DNA from: Candidatus Sericytochromatia bacterium
Lineage (GTDB): Bacteria > Cyanobacteriota > Sericytochromatia > S15B-MN24 > VGJW01
Direction: 5' to 3'
Length of the DNA stretch: 64,000 bases
Assembly: GCA_035285865.1 (NCBI GenBank)
Contig: JAYKHS010000017.1
Location: forward strand, 57,534 to 121,533
Part shown: positions 26,613-55,076 of the stretch, one piece after another
Layout: each line of letters begins with the position of its first letter
How positions within the stretch are numbered: position 1 is the stretch's first letter
The notes under the pieces: generated by a model
Told to the model about the DNA's origin: nothing
What the model saw: the letters and a program-made list of their open reading frames with translations, nothing else
Database searches by the model: none
Position numbers and translations under genes: made by a program

Positions 26613-27952
26613 ACACGTCACTGGTCCAGGAGGTCTGTGCGGCCGGGCTTGCCGCGGCGCGGGCCGCCGGTGCGGACGGGGCCGAGGTCTATGCCGTGTC
26701 GCGTCGCACCCGCGAGGTCGCTTTCGAGAAGAACGATCTCAATCTGGCACGGGCCGATGAGGAACTCACCGTCGGCATCCGCGTGCTGGTGGGGCAGTCC
26801 TTCGGCTTCGTCACGGTGAATGCGCCCGAACGCATCGAAGAGGCCGTGCGCCAGGCCACCGTGATTGCCCGGATCGCACCGCCCGATCCCCATCATCACC
26901 TGCCGGCGCCCGTGGCGCTGGCCCGGGGCGAACACGACCGGGATCCCGAACTGGCCGACTTTGGCCTGGGGCCCATGGCCGAGCTGGCCAGCCAGCTGGC
27001 GGAGCGGGTCAAGGCCAACGATCGGCGCCTCAGCATCGACGGCATCCGGGTCTCCGCCGAGGAGGCCGCCGTGGCCATCGCGTCGACGACGGGCATCGAT
27101 GCGGCGCATGTCACGAGCGAGCTCTCGGGCTTCGTGATGGGCATGGCCATCGAGGGTGACGAGGTCGGCTCCTTCAACTACGACGGAGCGGCCGGCAATC
27201 GACTGGCCACGGTTCGGTCGGAGATGCTCGCCGCCATGGACCGCTTTTCCGAGAAGGCCTTGTGGGCACTCGGTGCGCGCAAGGGCGAGACCTTCAAGGG
27301 GCGTATCCTGCTGACACCCGACGCCGTGGGCGAGATCCTGCTCGATCCGCTGCTCGGGGCGCTGGGTGCCGACAACCTGCGCAAGGGGCGCAGTCCGATG
27401 CAGGGACGGCTTGGCGAAGCCATCGCCGCCAGGTGCGTCACGCTCAGGGACCCGGGACGGGTGCTGGAAGGCATGGCGCTCGCGCCGTTCGACCGCGAGG
27501 GCCATGCCGTGCAGCCCTTGTCGCTGCTGCGTGATGGCGTGCTTGAAGGCTACTTCTACGATGCCTACGAGGCCCGCCGGGCCGGATGCGTGTCGACGGG
27601 GCATGGGCGCGGTGGTGCCAAGGGGCCTCCGGTCCTGACGCCCGGACTCATCGAGATGGTGGCGGGTGACGAGCCGGCTGCCGGGCTTGAGGCCCGAGCG
27701 GGGCGTGCGCTTGTGGTGCCCCGGTTCGCCGGCCGCGTCGAGATGGCCACGGGCGAGTTCTCGGGGGTGGTCAAGGGTGGCTTCATGGTGGGTTCGGGCG
27801 AGCGCATTCCGGTCGAGGAGACCATGATCGCGGGCAATGTGTATGACCTGCTGCGTGCCATCGAGGCCGTCAGCGCCGAGCGCCAGAACATCTTCGGGAC
27901 CGCCTTGCTGCCTTGGGTCCTGGCGGACGGCGTTCAGGTCACGGCGGGTTGA
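26609..27952 (+). CDS. pmbA: PmbA/TldE family subunit
   Basis: PFDREG, TGEFSG, ETMIAGN motifs; lacks HExxxH; ATGA overlap with tldD. Confidence 0.88.
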   Translation: MNTSLVQEVCAAGLAAARAAGADGAEVYAVSRRTREVAFEKNDLNLARADEELTVGIRVLVGQSFGFVTVNAPERIEEAVRQATVIARIAPPDPHHHLPAPVALARGEHDRDPELADFGLGPMAELASQLAERVKANDRRLSIDGIRVSAEEAAVAIASTTGIDAAHVTSELSGFVMGMAIEGDEVGSFNYDGAAGNRLATVRSEMLAAMDRFSEKALWALGARKGETFKGRILLTPDAVGEILLDPLLGALGADNLRKGRSPMQGRLGEAIAARCVTLRDPGRVLEGMALAPFDREGHAVQPLSLLRDGVLEGYFYDAYEARRAGCVSTGHGRGGAKGPPVLTPGLIEMVAGDEPAAGLEARAGRALVVPRFAGRVEMATGEFSGVVKGGFMVGSGERIPVEETMIAGNVYDLLRAIEAVSAERQNIFGTALLPWVLADGVQVTAG

Positions 27953-29733
27953 CGCCACTCGTCGCGGTCTTTCGTTCACGGACGCCGTGGGGCATCCTGC
28001 GAACCCTCATGTGGCGCGAGCGCAGGCCCTATCTGGTCGGGGCACTGTGCCTGCTGGCCTGTGACATCGGACAGGTCGGGGCACCGTTGCTCGTCGGCAA
28101 CGTGATCGATGGGCTGCGCGAGGCCTCGCTGGGGCCTGCGGACTTGCGGCTTCGGGTCGGGGCACTCGTGGTGCTGGCCGTTCTCGTCGCCCTGTGTCGC
28201 TACGGCTGGCGGATGGGCGTCTTCGGTTCGTCCCGCCGGATCGAACGCGACGTGCGGACGGCCCTGCACGACCACGTCATCCGTCTGCCTGCCGAAGCCC
28301 AGCGACGCAGGCCGCCGGGCGAGGTCATGGCGTTGGCCACCAACGACTTGCAGGCGATCCGGGCGGTCACGGGCGAGGGCGTCATGGCGGGTCTCGATGC
28401 CCCGTTCTACCTCCTGTCCGCCCTCGTGCCGATGTTGTGGCTGCACGCCGGCCTGACGGTCTGGGCCGTGCTGCCCCTGCCCTTGCTGGGCCTGGTCTCG
28501 TTTCTGCTGGGCCGGCGGATGCACGGCATGCATCGTGCCGTGCAGGAGGCCTTCGGCCGCCTGTCCGACCACGCGCAGGAGACGATCTCGGGCATCCGCG
28601 TCCTCAAGGGCTTCGCCCGCGAGTCAGGAGCGACGGCGGACTTCGCGGAGCGCAGCCGCGCGCATGCCGAGGCCACGATGCGGATGGTGCGCCTGCAGGG
28701 AGCTTTCGACCCCTTGATCGCTCTACTGTCGGGATCGTCCACGGTGCTGGTGCTGGTGTTCGGCGGCCGTCTGGTGACGGCGGGTGAACTGACCGTCGGT
28801 CAACTGGTCGCATTCCTCGGTTTCATCCAGATGCTCTCGTGGCCGATGATGGCGACGAGCTGGGCCTACAACATGGCCCAGCGCGCCCGGGCCAGCGCGG
28901 GGCGCCTGCAGGAACTTTTCCGCGAGGAGCCGGAGCCGCCTGCCGGCGAGGATTCGGGTTGGTGGCAGGCGAAGCCGCCCGCGCTCGAGGTCCGGAGTCT
29001 CTCCTTCACGTATCCCGGGGCCATCCGGCCGGCCTTGGCCGAGGTGTCCTTCGTTTTGCCCCCGGGCGAGGTCCTCGGCATCACCGGGCGCTCCGGGTCC
29101 GGCAAGAGCACGCTCGTGAGTCTGCTGCTGCGCCAGCTCGAGGTTCCGAGGGGGACGGTCTTCCTGGATGGCCGGGACATTCTGGACATGCCTTTGGCCG
29201 AGCTGCGGCGCGTCTTCGCCTGGGTGCCGCAGGAGGGGTTCCTGTTCGGCCGTTCGTTGGCCGAAAACGTCGCCATGGGCGGCGATACCGCCGGGGTGGA
29301 GCATGCGCTCCTGCAGGCAGGTCTCGGACCTGACCTGGAAGGCTGGCCCGAGCGCGCCGACACTGTCGTGGGCGAGCGGGGCGTCACCTTGTCCGGCGGT
29401 CAGCGGCAGAGGGTCTGTCTGGCGCGTGCCCTGCTGCGCGAAGCCCCGATCCTGCTCGTCGACGACGCGCTGTCTGCGGTCGATGCGGCGACGGAGCACC
29501 GCGTGCTGTCGATGCTCGGCGAGGCGCGCCGGGATCGCTCGGCCCTGGTCGTGGCGCATCGCTTGAGTGTCGTGCGGGCGGCTCCTCGCATCCTGGTGTT
29601 CGAGGAAGGTCGGCTGCACGAGCAGGGCACCCACGCGGAACTCGTGGCGCAAGGGGGCCTCTATGCCCGCATCTGGCACCTGCAGCAACTGGAGCGGGCC
29701 TTGACCGAAGCCACGGCCGGAGCGTCGGCATGA
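27949..29733 (+). CDS. ABC exporter, TMD-NBD half (MdlA-like)
   Basis: GRSGSGKS, LSGGQRQR, degenerate Walker B LVDDALSAVD; TTGA overlap. Confidence 0.92.
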   Translation: MTPLVAVFRSRTPWGILRTLMWRERRPYLVGALCLLACDIGQVGAPLLVGNVIDGLREASLGPADLRLRVGALVVLAVLVALCRYGWRMGVFGSSRRIERDVRTALHDHVIRLPAEAQRRRPPGEVMALATNDLQAIRAVTGEGVMAGLDAPFYLLSALVPMLWLHAGLTVWAVLPLPLLGLVSFLLGRRMHGMHRAVQEAFGRLSDHAQETISGIRVLKGFARESGATADFAERSRAHAEATMRMVRLQGAFDPLIALLSGSSTVLVLVFGGRLVTAGELTVGQLVAFLGFIQMLSWPMMATSWAYNMAQRARASAGRLQELFREEPEPPAGEDSGWWQAKPPALEVRSLSFTYPGAIRPALAEVSFVLPPGEVLGITGRSGSGKSTLVSLLLRQLEVPRGTVFLDGRDILDMPLAELRRVFAWVPQEGFLFGRSLAENVAMGGDTAGVEHALLQAGLGPDLEGWPERADTVVGERGVTLSGGQRQRVCLARALLREAPILLVDDALSAVDAATEHRVLSMLGEARRDRSALVVAHRLSVVRAAPRILVFEEGRLHEQGTHAELVAQGGLYARIWHLQQLERALTEATAGASA

Positions 29734-31631
29734 GCCACGGCGGACACCACGGCCACCTGCTCCGCGAGGACGATCACGAGCGGGCGTTCGACCCGATGCT
29801 GTTCCGCCATGTGCTGCGCTGGACACGTCCGGTTGCCGCCTGGCTGCTGGTCGGACTCGCGCTGCTGGTCCCGCTGAGTGCCGTGCCGGTCGTACTGCCG
29901 TGGATCGTCAAGCAGGCGATCGACGGGCCGCTGGGCGTGCAAGGAACGGTGCCGGTGCCTGCAACCGGACCGCTGGGGCTGGATCCGGGGTCTTGGCCGT
30001 GGCCGTCGGATCTGGTGGGGCTCGCGGTGCTTTATCTGGCGTTGCTGGTGGGCGAGTCCGTGCTGCGCTACGGCCAAGGCCTGATCATCCAGGGAGCCGG
30101 CCAGCGTGTCATCCGCCGGATCCGCGAGGAGACCTACGCGCACCTGTTGCGGCTGGACATGGCGGTATTCGACCGTCAGCCGGTGGGGCGTCTGGTCGCA
30201 CGGGTCACGTCGGACACCGAGAACATCAACGAGATGGTCACGGGCGTCCTCGTCGGACTCTTCCGGGATGTCTTCGTCATCGCGGGTACCGTCTGGGCCC
30301 TGTTCCGCCTCGATTCGACGCTGGCTTGGGTGGCGCTGGCAGCGGCGCCGATCATCGGGGGGCTGACGTTCGGATTCCGCAGGTGGTTGCGGTCTTCCTG
30401 GCGTGGGCTGCGGGTCCGGCAGGCCACGCTGATGTCCGTCATGTCCGAGAACCTGTCCGGGGTGCCCGTGCTGCAAGCCTTCGGGCGTGAAGATGCGGCC
30501 CAGGCGACTTTCCGGGACGAGGCCGACGCCTTCTACCGGACGGCGTGGAACCTTACGCACGTGCAGGGGATTCTCCGGCCTGCCATCGACCTCGCGACGC
30601 AGTTGGCCCTTGCGGCGGTGCTCTGGGCCGGTGGCCAGGCAGTCCTCGGGCACGGACTTGCCCTGGGAACCCTGTACGCCTTCACGGTCTACCTTCGGCA
30701 GCTCTTCAGCCCATTGGGCGAGCTGGCCGAGAAATACAACACGACGCTTGCCGCCTTTGCTTCGGCGGAGCGGTTGGTGCAACTGCAGGAGTCTCGCCCG
30801 ACCGTCTTGGCGCGTGGCGAAGGACCCTCCCTGCCTGAGGCCGAGGCCCTGCGTGCCCAGCCCCTGCGCTTCGAGGGAGTCGGCTTCGCCTATGCGCCAG
30901 ATGGGCCCGACGTGCTGGAAGACGTGACCCTGCTGCTGGCGCCGGGCGAGACCGTCGGGGTGGTGGGGGCGACGGGTGCGGGCAAGAGCAGTCTGCTGGG
31001 GCTGGTCGCCCGCTTTCACGATCCGGTCCGGGGCCGCCTGCTTGTCGGGGACGTGCCGCTGACGCGCTGGGACCCCGAGGCCTGGCGTCGGAATCTCGGC
31101 ATGGTCCTGCAGGAGCCGTTGCTGTTCCGGGGCACCCTGGGCGACAACCTCAGGATGGGCCGCGAGGATCTTCAGGACGAGCAGCTTCGGGCCGTCATGT
31201 CCGACGTGCTTGGCGAGGACCTCGAGCGGCGTTGGCCGGAGGCTCTCGCCACCCCCATGGGTGACCGCGGAGGCCTGCTCTCCACGGGCGAGCGCCAACT
31301 CGTTTGCCTTGCGAGGGCCTTGGCCACCGACCCGCCCCTGCTGGTGCTGGACGAGGCCACGGCAAGTGTCGACAGCGCCACCGAGGAAGCCATGCTGCGA
31401 CAGGTCGAGGCCCGGCGGGGGAAGGGGATGACCCTGGTCGTGGCCCATCGCCTCGCCACGGTGCGGGATGCGGACCGCATCGTCGTGCTGCATGCCGGTC
31501 GCGTCGTGGAGGAGGGCACGCATGCGGCCCTGCTGGCGGCTGGGGGTCGGTATGCGACCATGTGGGCGTTGCAGGCTGGCGAAGGCCAGTTGGCCGTAGC
31601 CGGGGGACAGGAGGCCGTTCTTGGAGACTGA
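29730..31631 (+). CDS. ABC exporter, TMD-NBD half (MdlB-like)
   Basis: GATGAGKS, degenerate signature LSTGERQ, LDEATASVD; His-rich N-terminus; ATGA overlap. Confidence 0.92.
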   Translation: MSHGGHHGHLLREDDHERAFDPMLFRHVLRWTRPVAAWLLVGLALLVPLSAVPVVLPWIVKQAIDGPLGVQGTVPVPATGPLGLDPGSWPWPSDLVGLAVLYLALLVGESVLRYGQGLIIQGAGQRVIRRIREETYAHLLRLDMAVFDRQPVGRLVARVTSDTENINEMVTGVLVGLFRDVFVIAGTVWALFRLDSTLAWVALAAAPIIGGLTFGFRRWLRSSWRGLRVRQATLMSVMSENLSGVPVLQAFGREDAAQATFRDEADAFYRTAWNLTHVQGILRPAIDLATQLALAAVLWAGGQAVLGHGLALGTLYAFTVYLRQLFSPLGELAEKYNTTLAAFASAERLVQLQESRPTVLARGEGPSLPEAEALRAQPLRFEGVGFAYAPDGPDVLEDVTLLLAPGETVGVVGATGAGKSSLLGLVARFHDPVRGRLLVGDVPLTRWDPEAWRRNLGMVLQEPLLFRGTLGDNLRMGREDLQDEQLRAVMSDVLGEDLERRWPEALATPMGDRGGLLSTGERQLVCLARALATDPPLLVLDEATASVDSATEEAMLRQVEARRGKGMTLVVAHRLATVRDADRIVVLHAGRVVEEGTHAALLAAGGRYATMWALQAGEGQLAVAGGQEAVLGD

Positions 31632-32106
31632 AGACCAAACAGAGGCTGCCGTCGTATCCGAACCCGCGCCCGCGACCTGGCGAACGCGCGTGGGGCGCCT
31701 CTTGGACATGGCGGCGTGGGCACTCGTGGCCGTGGTCGTCTGGCGCTTCCTCGGGCCTCAGGCGTCGGCGGATCTCGCCGGGGTGCGGGGTGTGGGCGGG
31801 GTGCTCGAACTGCCACCGGATCGACCGGCCGTGATCGAGGTGTCGTCGCACACCTGACCGGCCTGCGTCGCGATGGTGCCGGTCTGGCACCTGCTCGAAG
31901 CCCGCAGGGGCAGGGATGCGGCGTTCCGGGTGCTGTACCTGGACGAGGCGTCGGAGTCCGCCGCGGCCTTTGCCGTGCTCGAGGCGGCCCGTTCGCGCGT
32001 CACGCCAACCTTCCTGGTTCTGGACCGAAAGGGCCGTCCGGCGGCACGCTTCATGGGTGCCACGTCCTACATGGCGATCAGCGGGGCACTCGACGCGCTG
32101 CCCTGA
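31621..32106 (+). CDS. Membrane-anchored thioredoxin-fold selenoprotein (U-P-A-C; UGA read as Sec)
   Basis: Track ORFs 31621..31857 and 31873..32106 share a frame; TGA 31855-57 gives VIEVSSHT-U-PAC; cis-Pro motif TPTFLVLDRKG; RBS AGGAGG 6 nt before TTG; SECIS-like hairpin downstream. Confidence 0.85.
31858..31891 (+). promoter_or_regulatory. Bacterial SECIS-like element
   Basis: GGTGCC-GGTCT-GGCACC stem-loop (31875-31891) starting 18 nt after UGA; GGUCU apex as in E. coli fdhF SECIS. Confidence 0.75.
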
Positions 32107-32180
32107 GCGTTGCCGTTCCGGCCTGCGCCTGGGCCGATGCACCGCGAACGGAACCGGACCGTTCGGGCAGGTGCCTCAGC

Positions 32181-33620
32181 TCAGGAGCCCAGCCAGGCAC
32201 GCGCTGCCGCAAGCCGGTTGCTGTAGATCTGCAGGACGTCCTTACGCTCGTCGGGTGTCAGGCGGCTCTCGGGGTCGGCGGCTTTGAGGATGCGCTCCCC
32301 CGATCCTCCGGCATCCTTGGCGCCGGCGAGTGCCGTTGCCGCGGTCGTCAGTCTGTCGGCCACCTTGCCATCTGCCACGGCCTCGGCAAGGCCGTCAGCA
32401 TCCATCCAGGCTGCCGCCGCGAGTTCGGCAGGGTCCACCCCGTGCTCGCGGGCAACAGTCTCGAGGATGTCCCGATGCGGCTCCAGCGCAGCGGTTGCCT
32501 CTTCGCGGTCGAAGCCCCAGCCGTCCTCGGCCTGGGGCAAGGGCAGGTTGTCATCGCCCACGGCCTTGGCAGCCTGATCCACGAATTCGGGCATGTCCTC
32601 GCCCAGGCGTTCGAGGGTCGTTTCGTCGAGGCCCATGCGCCGGCCCGCCGCAACGGGATCCTTGCCCTGTCGCGCCGCGCCCAGCAGCTCGGCGGCCTGG
32701 TCCTCGTCCACGCCATAGGCTCGGGCGATGGCCTTGAGCACTTCCTGCAACGCCATGAGGTCCGCGAAGCTGCGGGGTGCCTGGGCCTGTGCCGGTACCC
32801 CGGAAGCCGGTGGTTCCGCCACGCCTCCGCTACGACCGCGCGAGGGCCGATAGGGTACTGGGCCGTCTGGCCGTCCATCCGAGGCGAGGGCGCCGCCCCC
32901 ACCGAGCGGGTTGCTGACGGGCGGCAGATCCGCGGCCGCACCGTCGTCGGCCCCGGCACCCGTCAGGCGGCCGTAGGCCATGATGCTGTTCAGGCGGCCC
33001 TCGTTCATGACGGTCCGATGCGCGGGCTGGCCGAAGCGGTTGCTCTCGAGCATCTCGGTCGGACGCCCCTGGGCGTCGACCTTGGAGACGACGCCGACAT
33101 GGTCGGACTTGCCGTCCTTGTCCCAGTCGAAGAACATGACGTCGCCGACGTGGGCCGGGGAGCGCCGATCGACGAGCTGCTGTTCCTTGCGGAAGTACTG
33201 GATCATCGACGGGCAGTAGTGGGGGTTGTAGCCCTTGGCCTTCATGTCCTTGCCCAGAGCGAAGCCTGCCCGGTCGTAGCTGTCGGCCACGAAGTCGGCG
33301 CAGCAGCCGACCTTGCCCGGGCTGTGGTAGTACCGCGTCGTCAGGTTGGGCGGGTATTTGTAGCCGCCTTCGATCAGGCTGCGGGCACCCTTGACCACGT
33401 CGTTGCCGAAGGTCGCCCGGGGATTGGCTGCCTTGGCGGCGGCTACGGCATCCGACAGCGAGCGAGCTTCAGACATGCGCCCCGTCGTGGACAACTGGTC
33501 CCTGACGGGGCCCGTCGTGCCGAGCGGGGCCGTGGCCCTAGCCGCAGGGAGGCTCCGGGAGAGGGGGGCGGATCCATGAAGGGGGCGTGCGCCGCCCGGG
33601 CGCTGCACGGGGTCTGGCAT
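32181..33620 (-). CDS. CHAP/NlpC-P60-like amidase domain protein
   Basis: CCADFVADSY; GDVMFFDW......DHVGVV; ESN; no signal peptide; start chosen from promoter-motif spacing. Confidence 0.8.
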   Translation of the reverse strand: MPDPVQRPGGARPLHGSAPLSRSLPAARATAPLGTTGPVRDQLSTTGRMSEARSLSDAVAAAKAANPRATFGNDVVKGARSLIEGGYKYPPNLTTRYYHSPGKVGCCADFVADSYDRAGFALGKDMKAKGYNPHYCPSMIQYFRKEQQLVDRRSPAHVGDVMFFDWDKDGKSDHVGVVSKVDAQGRPTEMLESNRFGQPAHRTVMNEGRLNSIMAYGRLTGAGADDGAAADLPPVSNPLGGGGALASDGRPDGPVPYRPSRGRSGGVAEPPASGVPAQAQAPRSFADLMALQEVLKAIARAYGVDEDQAAELLGAARQGKDPVAAGRRMGLDETTLERLGEDMPEFVDQAAKAVGDDNLPLPQAEDGWGFDREEATAALEPHRDILETVAREHGVDPAELAAAAWMDADGLAEAVADGKVADRLTTAATALAGAKDAGGSGERILKAADPESRLTPDERKDVLQIYSNRLAAARAWLGS

Positions 33621-33658
33621 ACGGTGGTCATACCCGGGGGCTGGGGTATCCTTGGGGC

Positions 33659-35524
33659 ATGGGCACCAACATCGTACGCACGTGGAGTGCGTCCGTCTCC
33701 GCACCTCCCGAGTCCGTCTGGACATGGGTGGCCGACACGCGCCGCTTCAACCGGGCGCTGGGTGTGGATTTCCCGCTGACGGGCTACGAAGGATCGCCAG
33801 AGGGCGAGGTCGACCTTTATGGCACGCATGACCTCGGACGCTTCCGCGAGCAGCCGTTCCAGTGGATCGAGCCCGAGTCCTTCGCCTCTTGCCGCGAGTT
33901 CATCGAGGGCCCCCTCGAGGAGCTGCGGACGCAGGTCCGTCTGGCCCCCGGCGTGGATGACTCCGATGGGCCGATGACTCACCTCCAATACACCGTGAAG
34001 TGCGTGGTGCGCGAGGGCGTGCCCGAGGAGGTGACGGGAGCGCTCGACGGCATGCTCACGTCCTTCGGTGGGGGCATCCTCGACCTCTGCGCGGCGATGA
34101 ACGCACGTTATCGTGCAGGCCAGCCGGCGGTGTACGTGCCGCCACCCCCTGAACTGGACGATGCTGCGTTGGCGCGAATCGCGGCCATCGGCGACCGCTT
34201 GCGCCAGAACGGGCGTCTGTCGCCGGTCGCGATCGACCGCCTGCTCGCTCTGGTGCGCACGGGCGGGGATGTCGAGGCCTGGCGGATGCGCCCGATCGCG
34301 CTTGCCAGGGCTTGGGGCATCCCGTCGCACGAGGTCGTGCGCGTGTTCCTGCACGCGACGCAGGCCGGCCTGCTGGATCTGCATTGGGAGATGACCTGCC
34401 CCCATTGCCGGGGCGTGGCCGAGGATCGGGGGCATCTGGCCGAGGTCACGGCTGTTGCGGCCTGTGCGTACTGTGTGGTGGAGGTGACTCCGGATCTGGC
34501 CTCATCGGTCGAGGTGACGTTCCGCCCGAATGCCGCGGTGCGGCGCATCGAGTTCAGGATGTACTGCTCCGGCGGACCCTTGGCCATGCCTCACGTGCTC
34601 TCGCAGGTGGTCGTGCCGCCGCATGACAGTCGAGAACTGCTGCTCGATCTGGGGCACGGTGCGTACCGCGTCCGGGCCCAGTGGCGGCAGCAGGCATGCA
34701 TTGTCGAGATCGCGGAAGCGGCCGGTCCCGGGGCGGGCCAACCCGAACTGGTCGAACTGCGGTGTGGCGATGGCGGCCTCGACAGGGCGCAACTGCAGCA
34801 CGCTTCGGGGCGCTTCCGCCTTGCCGTGGACAATGTCTCGGACAAGCCGATCCGGCTGCTCGTCGAGCGTACGGCGTGGGCGGACGATCGCCTTACGGCG
34901 GCGGCCTTGACCAGCCATCGCGACTTCCGGCACATGTTCGGCCACGAGGTTCTGGCACAGGGTACGCAGGTGACGTTGTCCCGGCAGACCATCCTCTTCA
35001 CGGACCTCAAGAACTCGACCCAGATGTACGAGGACATCGGGGATGCCCTGTCGTTCAGCTTGGTGCGCGACCACTTCGTCGTGATGGACGAGGCCATCGA
35101 CGCCTTCGGGGGGGCCATTGTCAAGACCATCGGGGATGCCGTGATGGCGGTGTTCGACGACCCGGTCGCGGCCGTGCGTTCGGCGTTCCGGATGCAGCGG
35201 GAGCTGCAGGCCTTCAATGCCACTTCGGGACGACCGCCCCTGACGCTCAAAGTAGGGATCCACGCAGGGCCGGGCATTGCCGTGACATTGAATGATCGCC
35301 TCGACTACTTCGGTACGACCGTCAACATGGCTGCGCGCGTCCAGGGCGAGTCGGTCGGGGACGACATCGTCCTCTCCGAGGCCGTTTGTGCCGACCCCGG
35401 CGTTCGCGACCTCCTCGCGGCCGAGGCCGCGCCCCGCGAACCGTACAAGGCCACGCTCAAGGGCCTCGGGGGCCAGCACGAACTGACGCGCCTCTGGCCC
35501 TTGCGCGTCCCGGCCCGGGTCTGA
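33659..35524 (+). CDS. Class III adenylate/guanylate cyclase with SRPBCC-like and DUF5939-like domains
   Basis: ILFTDLKNST.MYE, VKTIGDAVMA, DYFGTTVNMAAR; CPHC...CAYC zinc ribbon. Confidence 0.9.
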   Translation: MGTNIVRTWSASVSAPPESVWTWVADTRRFNRALGVDFPLTGYEGSPEGEVDLYGTHDLGRFREQPFQWIEPESFASCREFIEGPLEELRTQVRLAPGVDDSDGPMTHLQYTVKCVVREGVPEEVTGALDGMLTSFGGGILDLCAAMNARYRAGQPAVYVPPPPELDDAALARIAAIGDRLRQNGRLSPVAIDRLLALVRTGGDVEAWRMRPIALARAWGIPSHEVVRVFLHATQAGLLDLHWEMTCPHCRGVAEDRGHLAEVTAVAACAYCVVEVTPDLASSVEVTFRPNAAVRRIEFRMYCSGGPLAMPHVLSQVVVPPHDSRELLLDLGHGAYRVRAQWRQQACIVEIAEAAGPGAGQPELVELRCGDGGLDRAQLQHASGRFRLAVDNVSDKPIRLLVERTAWADDRLTAAALTSHRDFRHMFGHEVLAQGTQVTLSRQTILFTDLKNSTQMYEDIGDALSFSLVRDHFVVMDEAIDAFGGAIVKTIGDAVMAVFDDPVAAVRSAFRMQRELQAFNATSGRPPLTLKVGIHAGPGIAVTLNDRLDYFGTTVNMAARVQGESVGDDIVLSEAVCADPGVRDLLAAEAAPREPYKATLKGLGGQHELTRLWPLRVPARV

Positions 35525-54515: not shown

Positions 54516-55076
54516 CTAGATCTTGCCGACGAGGTCTAGACCGGGCTTGAGGGTCTGGGCTCCGGGCGTCCACTTGGCGGGACAGACCTGACCGGGATGG
54601 GCGGCCACGAACTGCGCGGCCTGGATCTTGCGCACCAGCTCGGCGGCGTTGCGACCGATGCCATCGTCCGTGACCTCGATGATCTTCACGAGGCCCTCGG
54701 GGTTGACGACGAAGGTCCCGCGCCGCGACAGGCCTTCTTCCTCGACATACGTCCCAAAGGCACGCGACAGGCGGCCCGTCGGGTCGGCCAGCATCGGGTA
54801 GGTCAGTTTGCCGATGGTCTCGGACGTGTCGTGCCACGCCTTGTGGGTGAAGTGCGTGTCCGTGCTGACGGCGTAGACCTCGACCCCCATGCCCTGCAGC
54901 TCGGCGTAGCGATCGTTCAGGTCGGCGAGCTCGGTCGGGCAGACGAAGGTGAAGTCGGCAGGATAGAAGAACAGCACGGACCACTTGCCGAGCAGGTCTT
55001 CGTGGGTGACGGTCCGGAAAGCGTCCTGGTGATAGGCCTGGGCCTTGAAGTCGGGGATGCGCTGGTTGATGAGCAT
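54516..55076 (-). CDS. ahpC: Alkyl hydroperoxide reductase subunit C
   Basis: YPADFTFVCPTEL; VCPAKW; RBS AAGGAG. Confidence 0.97.
   Translation of the reverse strand: MLINQRIPDFKAQAYHQDAFRTVTHEDLLGKWSVLFFYPADFTFVCPTELADLNDRYAELQGMGVEVYAVSTDTHFTHKAWHDTSETIGKLTYPMLADPTGRLSRAFGTYVEEEGLSRRGTFVVNPEGLVKIIEVTDDGIGRNAAELVRKIQAAQFVAAHPGQVCPAKWTPGAQTLKPGLDLVGKI

Follow-up and report, generated by a model that had tools for sequence, protein, structure and literature searches.

The commonest kind of selenoprotein in bacteria is a protein of the thioredoxin (Trx) fold with a UxxC motif, in which U is selenocysteine (Sec), and with orthologs that carry cysteine (Cys). In thioredoxin itself the centre of the active site is G-P, and in the iodothyronine deiodinases the active-site motif is T-U-P. 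The membrane-anchored thiol-disulfide reductases that work outside the cytoplasm include TlpA, ResA, CcmG/DsbE, StoA and the proteins of the cyanobacterial and plastid HCF164/TxlA type, and we know of no member of these families with Sec at the corresponding position. Among the bacterial Trx-like selenoprotein families named in one survey are Thioredoxin (Trx), a thiol:disulfide oxidoreductase of the Prx-like kind, a DsbA-like protein and a thiol:disulfide interchange protein (PMC1794560), and many Trx-like families appear in a later tabulation (PMC13188914). Here we describe a gene which very probably encodes a genuine selenoprotein, a predicted membrane-anchored minimal Trx-fold oxidoreductase with the motif U-P-A-C. 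It lies at positions 31621-32106 (+ strand) of a 64,000-nt stretch of DNA, hereafter the window, which was taken from contig JAYKHS010000017.1 (positions 57,534 to 121,533) of the Candidatus Sericytochromatia bacterium assembly GCA_035285865.1.

With the described Trx-like UxxC selenoproteins the predicted protein shares the Trx fold, Sec at the N-terminal, nucleophilic position of UxxC, and Cys orthologs in related organisms. As in those families, the putative selenocysteine insertion sequence (SECIS) lies in the coding region just 3' of the UGA, and discovery of the protein requires that a split gene call be read through. It differs from them in that no curated model covers it. Unlike classical thioredoxin it has an N-terminal membrane helix and is without the first beta-alpha unit, and its motif is U-P-A/S-C in place of the G-P centre. 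The reductases of the TlpA/ResA/CcmG/HCF164 type resemble it in having one N-terminal anchor followed by a Trx-fold CxxC domain; in addition, the host genome has a matching electron supplier (DsbD_TM/CcdA) together with ResB of the system II pathway for cytochrome c maturation, and one of the Cys orthologs adjoins an SCO1/SenC gene. The domain described here, however, has only about 100 residues, and its nearest structures are classical thioredoxins rather than the larger Redoxin-type domain. The principle of a Trx-fold UxxC selenoprotein with Cys orthologs is thus known; what is new is an unannotated member of this group and the lineage in which it occurs.

On the + strand an open reading frame (ORF) of 78 aa (31621-31857) is followed in the same frame by one of 77 aa (31873-32106), and the sole in-frame stop between 31621 and 32103 is the TGA at 31855-31857. 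With this TGA translated as U the frame has 161 codons and reads ...PAVIEVSSHT-U-P-A-C-VAMVP..., in which the putative Sec is residue 79 (U79) and the second Cys of the motif residue 82 (C82); the 161-residue read-through product carries ...RVTPTFLVLDRKG... 3' of the U-P-A-C motif. The true stop codon (32104-32106) is TGA too, as it is in 17 of 18 orthologs, so that TGA is an ordinary stop in these genomes. The TTG start at 31621 is preceded, at a distance of 6 nt, by a Shine-Dalgarno-like GGAGG (31610-31614), aligns with the ATG of the closest ortholog (genome G002; LETEDQ versus MEREDK) and overlaps by 11 nt the 3' end of an upstream ABC exporter gene, the stop codon of which is at 31629-31631. 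Residues 21-44 (31681-31752) form a predicted N-terminal membrane helix or signal anchor, a helix in the AlphaFold2 model, with a core of 12 uncharged residues between RTRVGR on its N side and a conserved R-x-x-x-P on its C side; P46 is invariant. The redox motif (U79, P80, A81, C82; 31855-31866) stands at the N-terminus of helix alpha-1, which begins at residue 80 of the model, and T128-P129-T130 (32002-32010), corresponding to the cis-Pro loop of the Trx fold, directly precedes the model strand 130-134. A sequence-only reading of the window had proposed that the two same-frame ORFs are one gene interrupted at a Sec codon, that the product has 161 residues with one N-terminal membrane helix, and that a cis-Pro strand 3' of the TGA completes the Trx fold. 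Its coordinates and the SSHT-U-PAC context agree exactly with the sequence, the frame reads through, and both structural features reappear in the model.

A six-frame search of 61 related genomes revealed one ortholog in each of 18, eleven of them with exactly one in-frame TGA and seven with none. In the alignment of the 18 genes the codon column of 31855-31857 holds TGA in 11, TGC in five and TGT in two, so that every homolog has either a putative Sec or a Cys at codon 79, the pairing by which the sequence-only reading had proposed that the idea be judged. The TGA forms come from the window's genus (family f1, all four genomes) and from family f4 (seven genomes), and the Cys forms, also seven, from family f3. 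Within the genus the orthologs are 69-82% identical to the window protein, outside it 28-42%, and both halves stay in frame throughout. The positions invariant in all 18 orthologs are U/C79, P80, C82, P87, D108, T128-P129-T130, G138, G146 and L157. A profile search over all 47 genomes of the class returned the same 18 orthologs and none further at E ≤ 1e-12, which places the known range of the family within one order of Sericytochromatia.

The sequence-only reading had also asked that the TGA be checked against reads, and independent contigs from three public runs as well as the 10 other genomes carry it, so that it is no sequencing or assembly error. We compared contigs assembled from public runs with positions 31300-32400 of the window; two of them (X2 and X4) are DNA from different studies, and the third (X13) derives from a metatranscriptomic library. 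All three span 31855-31857 and are identical to the window over 31802-32006, while they show 6-7 differences from it in 32007-32067. These contigs therefore represent strain variants which keep the TGA and the hairpin that follows it.

This hairpin (31875-31891) consists of a perfect 6-bp stem, GGUGCC/GGCACC, and a GGUCU loop (GGTGCC at 31875-31880, GGTCT at 31881-31885 and GGCACC at 31886-31891), with a calculated energy of -10.1 kcal/mol. Its stem begins at the 18th nt after the UGA, precisely where the sequence-only reading had put it, and the gap from UGA to loop is 23 nt. The published criteria for a bacterial SECIS (bSECIS) are a loop of 3-9 nt, a stem of 4-16 bp, a G at one of the loop's first two positions, a UGA-loop spacing of 16-37 nt and an energy ≤ -7.5 kcal/mol (PMC13188914), and the hairpin agrees with all of these. 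So do the hairpins of all 11 Sec forms (-10.0 to -10.7 kcal/mol) versus only one of the seven Cys forms, that one at -8.5 kcal/mol. In family f1, that is the window and three congeners, all four genes pass with the identical hairpin (loop GGUCU, 6 bp, spacing 23 nt, -10.1 kcal/mol); in f4 all seven pass with a GUC loop closed by G-C (equivalently GGUCC), a stem of 8 bp, a spacing of 19 nt and energies of -10.0 to -10.7 kcal/mol.

The resemblance to the E. coli fdhF apex that had been claimed for the loop holds: in the annotated K-12 record the TGA is codon 140 of fdhF, and an apical GGUC occurs 18 nt after the UGA. In both genes the hairpin lies within the coding sequence and has the apex GGUC. 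The loop offset from the UGA is 18 nt in fdhF, 18-19 nt in the f4 orthologs (G-GUC-C) and 23 nt in the window (GGUCU). The fdhF SECIS has a bulged U, for which the short perfect 6-bp helix of the window has no evident counterpart.

Synonymous sites downstream of the TGA are constrained. We counted identical codons at degenerate positions where the amino acid is invariant, and used Fisher tests, which take codons as independent, to compare codons +1 to +13 after the UGA with those elsewhere in the gene. In the genus 9 of 10 such codons are frozen in this interval versus 14 of 73 elsewhere (p 2e-5); the values for f4 are 4/8 versus 1/16 (p 0.03), and for the Cys forms of f3 they are 1/3 versus 1/32, which is not significant. 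The rare Gly codon GGT, the source of the loop U, is present in all seven f4 genes. In the f4 stem 56 of 56 cells are paired, as against 41-57% when the partner is slid, and the changes observed are one compensatory pair (GC in five genomes, CG in two) and one compatible single change (GU in six, AU in one). This covariation offers modest support and probably reflects one evolutionary event. A hairpin with at least 6 contiguous pairs and a 5-nt loop GGUNN located 12-36 nt after the triplet follows 96 of the 61,466 TGA triplets (0.16%) in this genome of 66.9% G+C, by a criterion chosen after the hairpin had been seen. Taken by itself the predicted hairpin is moderate evidence, and it is the comparative data which carry the case.

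The sequence-only reading had implied that the lineage encodes SelA, SelB, SelC and SelD, and all of these were found, above curated cut-offs, in the host genome (2.82 Mb in 32 contigs, 82.7% complete, with the window on contig C17). The tRNA-Sec on contig C12 scores 70.5 bits (gathering score 47) and is called by ARAGORN as tRNA-SeC with anticodon tca; a tRNA-Asp(gtc) follows 45 nt later on the same strand. The selA (532 bits) and selB (323 bits) genes are situated side by side. The selD gene (341 bits; C11:100243-101169, - strand) likewise encodes a selenoprotein, its single in-frame TGA falling at the active site (...TSGG-U-AAK...), and 32-33 nt after this UGA comes the apex G-GUU-C of a 9-bp hairpin. 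About 6 kb from selB-selA we observed a gene for a Redoxin/BCP-type peroxiredoxin (C7:117955-118335, - strand) in which the peroxidatic position is occupied by a single in-frame TGA (~C7:118218; ...AFTPG-U-EAEMK...). This gene probably encodes a second Trx-fold selenoprotein of the genome; its hairpin starts closer to the UGA, with the loop ~13 nt after it, and fails contiguous-stem criteria. A scan of the genome with a narrow hairpin criterion gave 28 long read-through frames, among which by eye only selD and the 31621-32106 gene look protein-like; as it missed the C7 peroxiredoxin candidate, the scan is no survey of the selenoproteome.

Among the 61 relatives selA is above the curated cut-off in 23. 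These include all 11 genomes with a TGA form (the G020 copy being a contig-end fragment of 338 bits) and two of the seven with a Cys form (G015 and G017). In the other five Cys-form genomes, which are 85-100% complete, selA gave no match (G009, G011, G021) or a score of about 20 bits (G019, G025). Because the genomes are kin, we regard the co-occurrence of selA with the TGA form as a consistent pattern and attach no statistical test to it.

An AlphaFold2 model calculated with the 18-sequence alignment has a predicted local distance difference test score (pLDDT) of 90.8 and a predicted template modelling score (pTM) of 0.77. It consists of the helix 21-44 and a beta-alpha-beta-alpha-beta-beta-alpha domain with strands 70-75, 101-106, 130-134 and 140-145 and helices 80-96, 110-122 and 150-158. 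The top Foldseek matches in the PDB are classical thioredoxins (E ~5e-7, probability 1.00, template modelling score on the target 0.67-0.72) over ~93 aligned columns with 20-22% identity. Four of eight full-length Cys-form relatives scanned (P0002, P0004, P0005 and P0007) pass the gathering score of Thioredoxin (PF00085), and two pass that of Thioredoxin_2 (PF13098), for which the window protein itself scores 18.0 bits versus 27. Across the 18 members the best NCBIfam match is the generic thioredoxin TIGR01068, weakly and in 14; SaoT (NF040730) is matched by two (E = 0.0021), TsoB (NF045694) by one (E = 0.0073), TlpA by two and DsbE by three, these last all far under their cut-offs. Redoxin (PF08534) is matched by one of the eight family homologs scanned (E = 0.004, below the gathering score). 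By modelled fold and motif the protein is a member of the thioredoxin superfamily, and its profile matches place it outside the TlpA/Redoxin group, the deiodinases and the curated selenoprotein families. Of the description TlpA-like, which the sequence-only reading had used, the architecture of an anchor plus a Trx-fold domain stands; the domain does not fit, being a minimal classical thioredoxin fold and not the larger Redoxin/TlpA type.

The top Pfam match of the window protein is T4_deiodinase (PF00837; E = 2.8e-4, residues 66-114). Deiodinases too are N-terminally anchored Trx-fold selenoenzymes, and the T-U-P of their active site recurs here; the present family differs from them, and agrees with thioredoxins, in its resolving Cys at +3 (UxxC). 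A relationship to the deiodinases was rejected, as the match reaches 20.7 bits where the gathering score is 27, and none of 10 homologs scanned matches PF00837 at E ≤ 0.01.

When the profile was run against a library of 1.84 billion protein representatives it returned 8,993 matches at E ≤ 1e-3 (generic thioredoxins), 189 at ≤ 1e-10 and seven at ≤ 1e-30, and 18 of the best 150 were examined individually. The full-length close relatives among those examined (143-157 aa, and one of 312 aa) carry CPSC, CPGC, CLAC or CPAC. At least eight representatives of 77-97 aa start at profile position 65, the Met that comes next after U-P-A-C-x-A, and one is nearly identical to the C-terminal ORF of the window. 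They are truncated calls of Sec forms, in keeping with the expectation that gene callers would split the gene. A protein homolog search with the read-through product found none among 861 candidates at E ≤ 1e-3, because gene calls are truncated and identity is low. The gene is consequently invisible in present annotation, there being no curated family for it and the public calls retaining the C-terminal half without the active site. One natural Cys homolog, P0002, falls in generic thioredoxin clusters, most commonly of Melainabacteria, which is a lead and not evidence.

The explanation we favour, and consider quite probable as a whole, is that of an anchored Sec-thioredoxin decoded through SelB and a SECIS, with a catalytic cycle that more likely than not takes place outside the cytoplasm. 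The UGA at 31855-31857 would be read as Sec, with the hairpin at 31875-31891 recruiting SelB and its Sec-tRNA(Sec); host selA, selB, selC and selD would supply all that decoding needs. By analogy with thioredoxin chemistry the protein would act as a thiol/selenol-disulfide oxidoreductase, the selenolate of U79 attacking a substrate disulfide and C82 resolving the selenenylsulfide, after which a partner would re-reduce the U79-C82 bond. If the domain is outside, re-reduction could proceed via the CcdA-type membrane electron carrier of the host, and the protein would then resemble the anchored reductases which serve cytochrome c and copper-centre assembly.

A number of observations weigh against this explanation. 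The host is a metagenome-assembled genome that is 82.7% complete. The related genomes are kin, and the 11 TGA forms may amount to perhaps two or three independent lineages; the Fisher tests, moreover, assume independent codons. The contig from the RNA library is at most a hint of transcription, as such libraries can contain DNA. With regard to the hairpin, 19 of 500 shuffles reach the covariation score of f4, in which the one compensatory pair involves two probably sister genomes, and the general bSECIS criteria at ≤ -10 kcal/mol are passed by 232 of 6,089 sampled TGA sites (3.8%). The 61-nt segment after the UGA is no stabler than its shuffles (z = -0.42; 52 of 200 fold at least as well), and in the fold of this segment the hairpin is in the centroid, not in the minimum free energy (MFE) structure, although it does belong to the MFE structure of a 75-nt segment. 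An Rfam scan of 31700-32100 gave no SECIS family (the matches were nhaA-II, E = 4.9, and mir-9186, E = 7.7), a null which is uninformative because few bacterial SECIS models exist. Finally, the window protein is below the Pfam gathering scores for PF00085 (17.4 versus 23.5 bits) and T4_deiodinase (20.7 versus 27), no NCBIfam family is matched at E ≤ 0.01, and no gene neighbour is common to f1, f3 and f4, the context thus pointing to no substrate.

Could the TGA be a true stop, the locus being a pseudogene or two small genes for a 78-aa membrane peptide and a 77-aa fragment, with no Sec involved? The public gene calls treat it so (at least eight representatives have 77-97 aa), 17 of the 18 orthologs use TGA as their normal stop, and the regional folding energy is unremarkable. 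We nevertheless find this scarcely credible, since the same codon recurs in 11 genomes of two families at 28-42% identity with the halves in one frame and no other lesion, and the other seven genomes have Cys at exactly that codon. By itself the downstream fragment would have neither the CxxC motif nor the fold's first strand. All TGA forms (11/11) come from genomes with selA, and both the synonymous-site constraint and the conserved hairpin lie after the TGA. A related proposal has the ribosome pass the UGA without inserting Sec, Cys or Trp being placed at position 79 of an ordinary CxxC or WxxC thioredoxin by a near-cognate tRNA or a local reassignment. Low-level insertion of Cys or Trp at UGA does occur in bacteria under selenium limitation, and the sequence is compatible with some product of this sort, yet the genome retains a complete and specific Sec apparatus, and the UGA is followed by a hairpin of the SECIS type that is common to selD and fdhF. 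TGA also stops this gene and its neighbours, hence there is no global reassignment, and lineages without selA carry TGC or TGT in its place. We judge this reading very unlikely, and prefer Sec insertion at U79.

The side of the membrane on which the redox domain lies is less certain. In most members the uncharged core of the anchor has 12-15 residues, with Arg/Lys-rich sequence before it and a conserved [RK]-x-x-x-P after it. Over 24 sequences the N flank has 49 Lys and Arg in all and the C flank 36; inside the genus the ratio is 3 to 1 in three sequences and 3 to 2 in the fourth. This excess modestly favours an N-in/C-out signal anchor with the domain outside the cytoplasm, a topology which, on charge distribution, we hold to be somewhat the better supported. 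The host genome has one DsbD_TM/CcdA gene, one ResB gene and six Redoxin-family genes, which is consistent with such a location and not decisive. Alternatively, the same selenoprotein may have its Trx domain in the cytoplasm, through an N-out/C-in or re-entrant anchor, and be recycled by thioredoxin reductase; its clients, reached from inside, might be the co-transcribed ABC exporter or other membrane proteins. Outside the genus the charge bias is small, which weakens the case for an external domain, and in 24 of 24 sequences the residue next after the hydrophobic core is a conserved Arg or Lys, the C flank of the f4 proteins often equalling or exceeding the N flank in positive charges. The fold is nearest to classical cytoplasmic thioredoxins and not to the periplasmic proteins of the TlpA/ResA type, and within the genus the selenoprotein gene shares its first nucleotides with the end of the gene for an ABC exporter, a protein whose ATPase domains are cytoplasmic. 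On the other side of the ledger are the overall richness of the N flank in Lys and Arg, including the 3 versus 1 of three of the four genus sequences, and the look of a signal anchor or signal peptide given by a core of 12-15 residues with a positive N side and a Pro a few residues on. Soluble thioredoxins, moreover, need no anchor, and anchored Trx-fold proteins are typically extracytoplasmic; the ABC linkage is restricted to one genus. A cytoplasmic domain appears rather unlikely, though it deserves to be taken seriously. A database protein of 312 aa, P0008, has a DUF547 domain (49 bits) followed by a membrane helix and a CPAC thioredoxin domain. If its predicted N-terminus is complete and without a signal peptide, its Trx domain would be outside, and the protein is a possible handle on topology and function.

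A maximum-likelihood tree was constructed from 27 rows: the 18 orthologs, seven Cys forms from the database and two outgroup thioredoxins (P0008 was cut to its C-terminal domain, and P0002 was left out as identical to the G019 protein). The Sec clade of the genus is nested in a well-supported group (96/95) with Cys forms, and the Sec forms of f4 are elsewhere in the tree with one Cys form among them. The well-supported branches force at least two Sec/Cys changes, and the whole tree needs three. Taken with the SECIS offsets (23 versus 19 nt), the tree is compatible with conversion on several occasions and likewise with an ancient Sec state followed by losses and drift; it has no root and is built on short sequences, which leaves the direction of Sec/Cys change undecided. 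With its Sec and Cys forms interleaved on the tree, the family is a compact natural experiment on Sec/Cys exchange, and the two SECIS offsets in one coding helix show how such an element can arise or drift in a constrained frame.

Immediately upstream of the selenoprotein gene are two overlapping genes for a predicted heterodimeric ABC exporter (27913-31631, + strand), which encode proteins of 606 aa (27913-29733) and 633 aa (29730-31631). Their NCBIfam scores are 414 and 333 bits to SmdA/MsbA-like models and 258 and 238 bits to CydD/CydC-like models, all below equivalog cut-offs. A thiol exporter of the CydDC type was considered for this pair and is unsupported, the 258 and 238 bits comparing with cut-offs of 435 and 329 and lying under the SmdA/MsbA-like scores. 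The exporter genes are probably co-transcribed with the selenoprotein gene, and the 11-nt overlap suggests translational coupling; a promoter and terminator scan of 27600-32400 gave nothing on the + strand. This synteny exists only in the genus (G001-G003). In f3 the neighbours are rhodanese (three loci), SCO1/SenC (one locus), or MMPL plus a GTPase, and in f4 they are ArAE_1 and a holin-like protein. Downstream a convergent ORF of 514 aa (32181-33725, - strand), which has no NCBIfam family at E ≤ 0.01, adjoins the selenoprotein gene throughout the genus, and only there, at 77-82% identity. In a contig from run X6 the 71-nt intergenic stretch after the stop of the gene (32108-32180) is replaced by 66 other letters, so that the spacer between the convergent genes varies among strains while the coding parts are kept. 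Further along the window are a 645-aa ORF (33587-35524, + strand), residues 467-630 of which are weakly adenylate cyclase-like (LipJ model, 44 bits, far below cut-off), and a Redoxin-family gene (PF08534, 52.6 bits) without an in-frame stop at 54663-55067 on the - strand (C17:112196-112600).

The host lineage is an unexpected one for Sec, being a non-photosynthetic relative of the cyanobacteria; NCBI places Sericytochromatia in the Cyanobacteriota/Melainabacteria group. In a sample of 401 genomes from the phylum selA is above the cut-off in 23, all of them among the 47 genomes of the window's class and in its families f1, f3, f4, f5 and f7 (f6, 0/13); it was found in none of the 354 genomes sampled from the rest of the phylum. 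As predicted from selA, then, Sec decoding is common in Sericytochromatia, and the remaining genomes of the sample gave no sign of it. Passages in the literature describe Cyanobacteria as without the Sec trait, and one source mentions only an orphan SelD, in some Prochlorococcus (PMC5029168). A search of titles and the beginnings of abstracts turned up no paper that connects Sec with Sericytochromatia, Melainabacteria or Cyanobacteriota; the supplementary tables of selenoproteome surveys (PMC13188914, PMC12013277) might list the family or the lineage.

A more far-reaching account may be offered tentatively, and as a whole we consider it doubtful. It holds that this is an undescribed family in which Sec and Cys were swapped at least twice, with SECIS elements arising from different codons, that the protein is extracytoplasmic, and that Sec was lost from, or always absent in, the oxygenic lineage. 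If this were true, exchange between Sec and the catalytic Cys, in one direction or the other, took place two or more times inside a single order of Sericytochromatia, each SECIS having been carved from different codons of the same helix, and an anchored extracytoplasmic Sec-thioredoxin would feed electrons to cytochrome or copper-centre assembly. Sec decoding would be common in the non-photosynthetic sister class of Cyanobacteria and missing in the oxygenic lineage. The view that Cyanobacteria are without selenocysteine would then need revision, and the loss of Sec, or the failure to acquire it, would be dated with respect to the origin of oxygenic photosynthesis.

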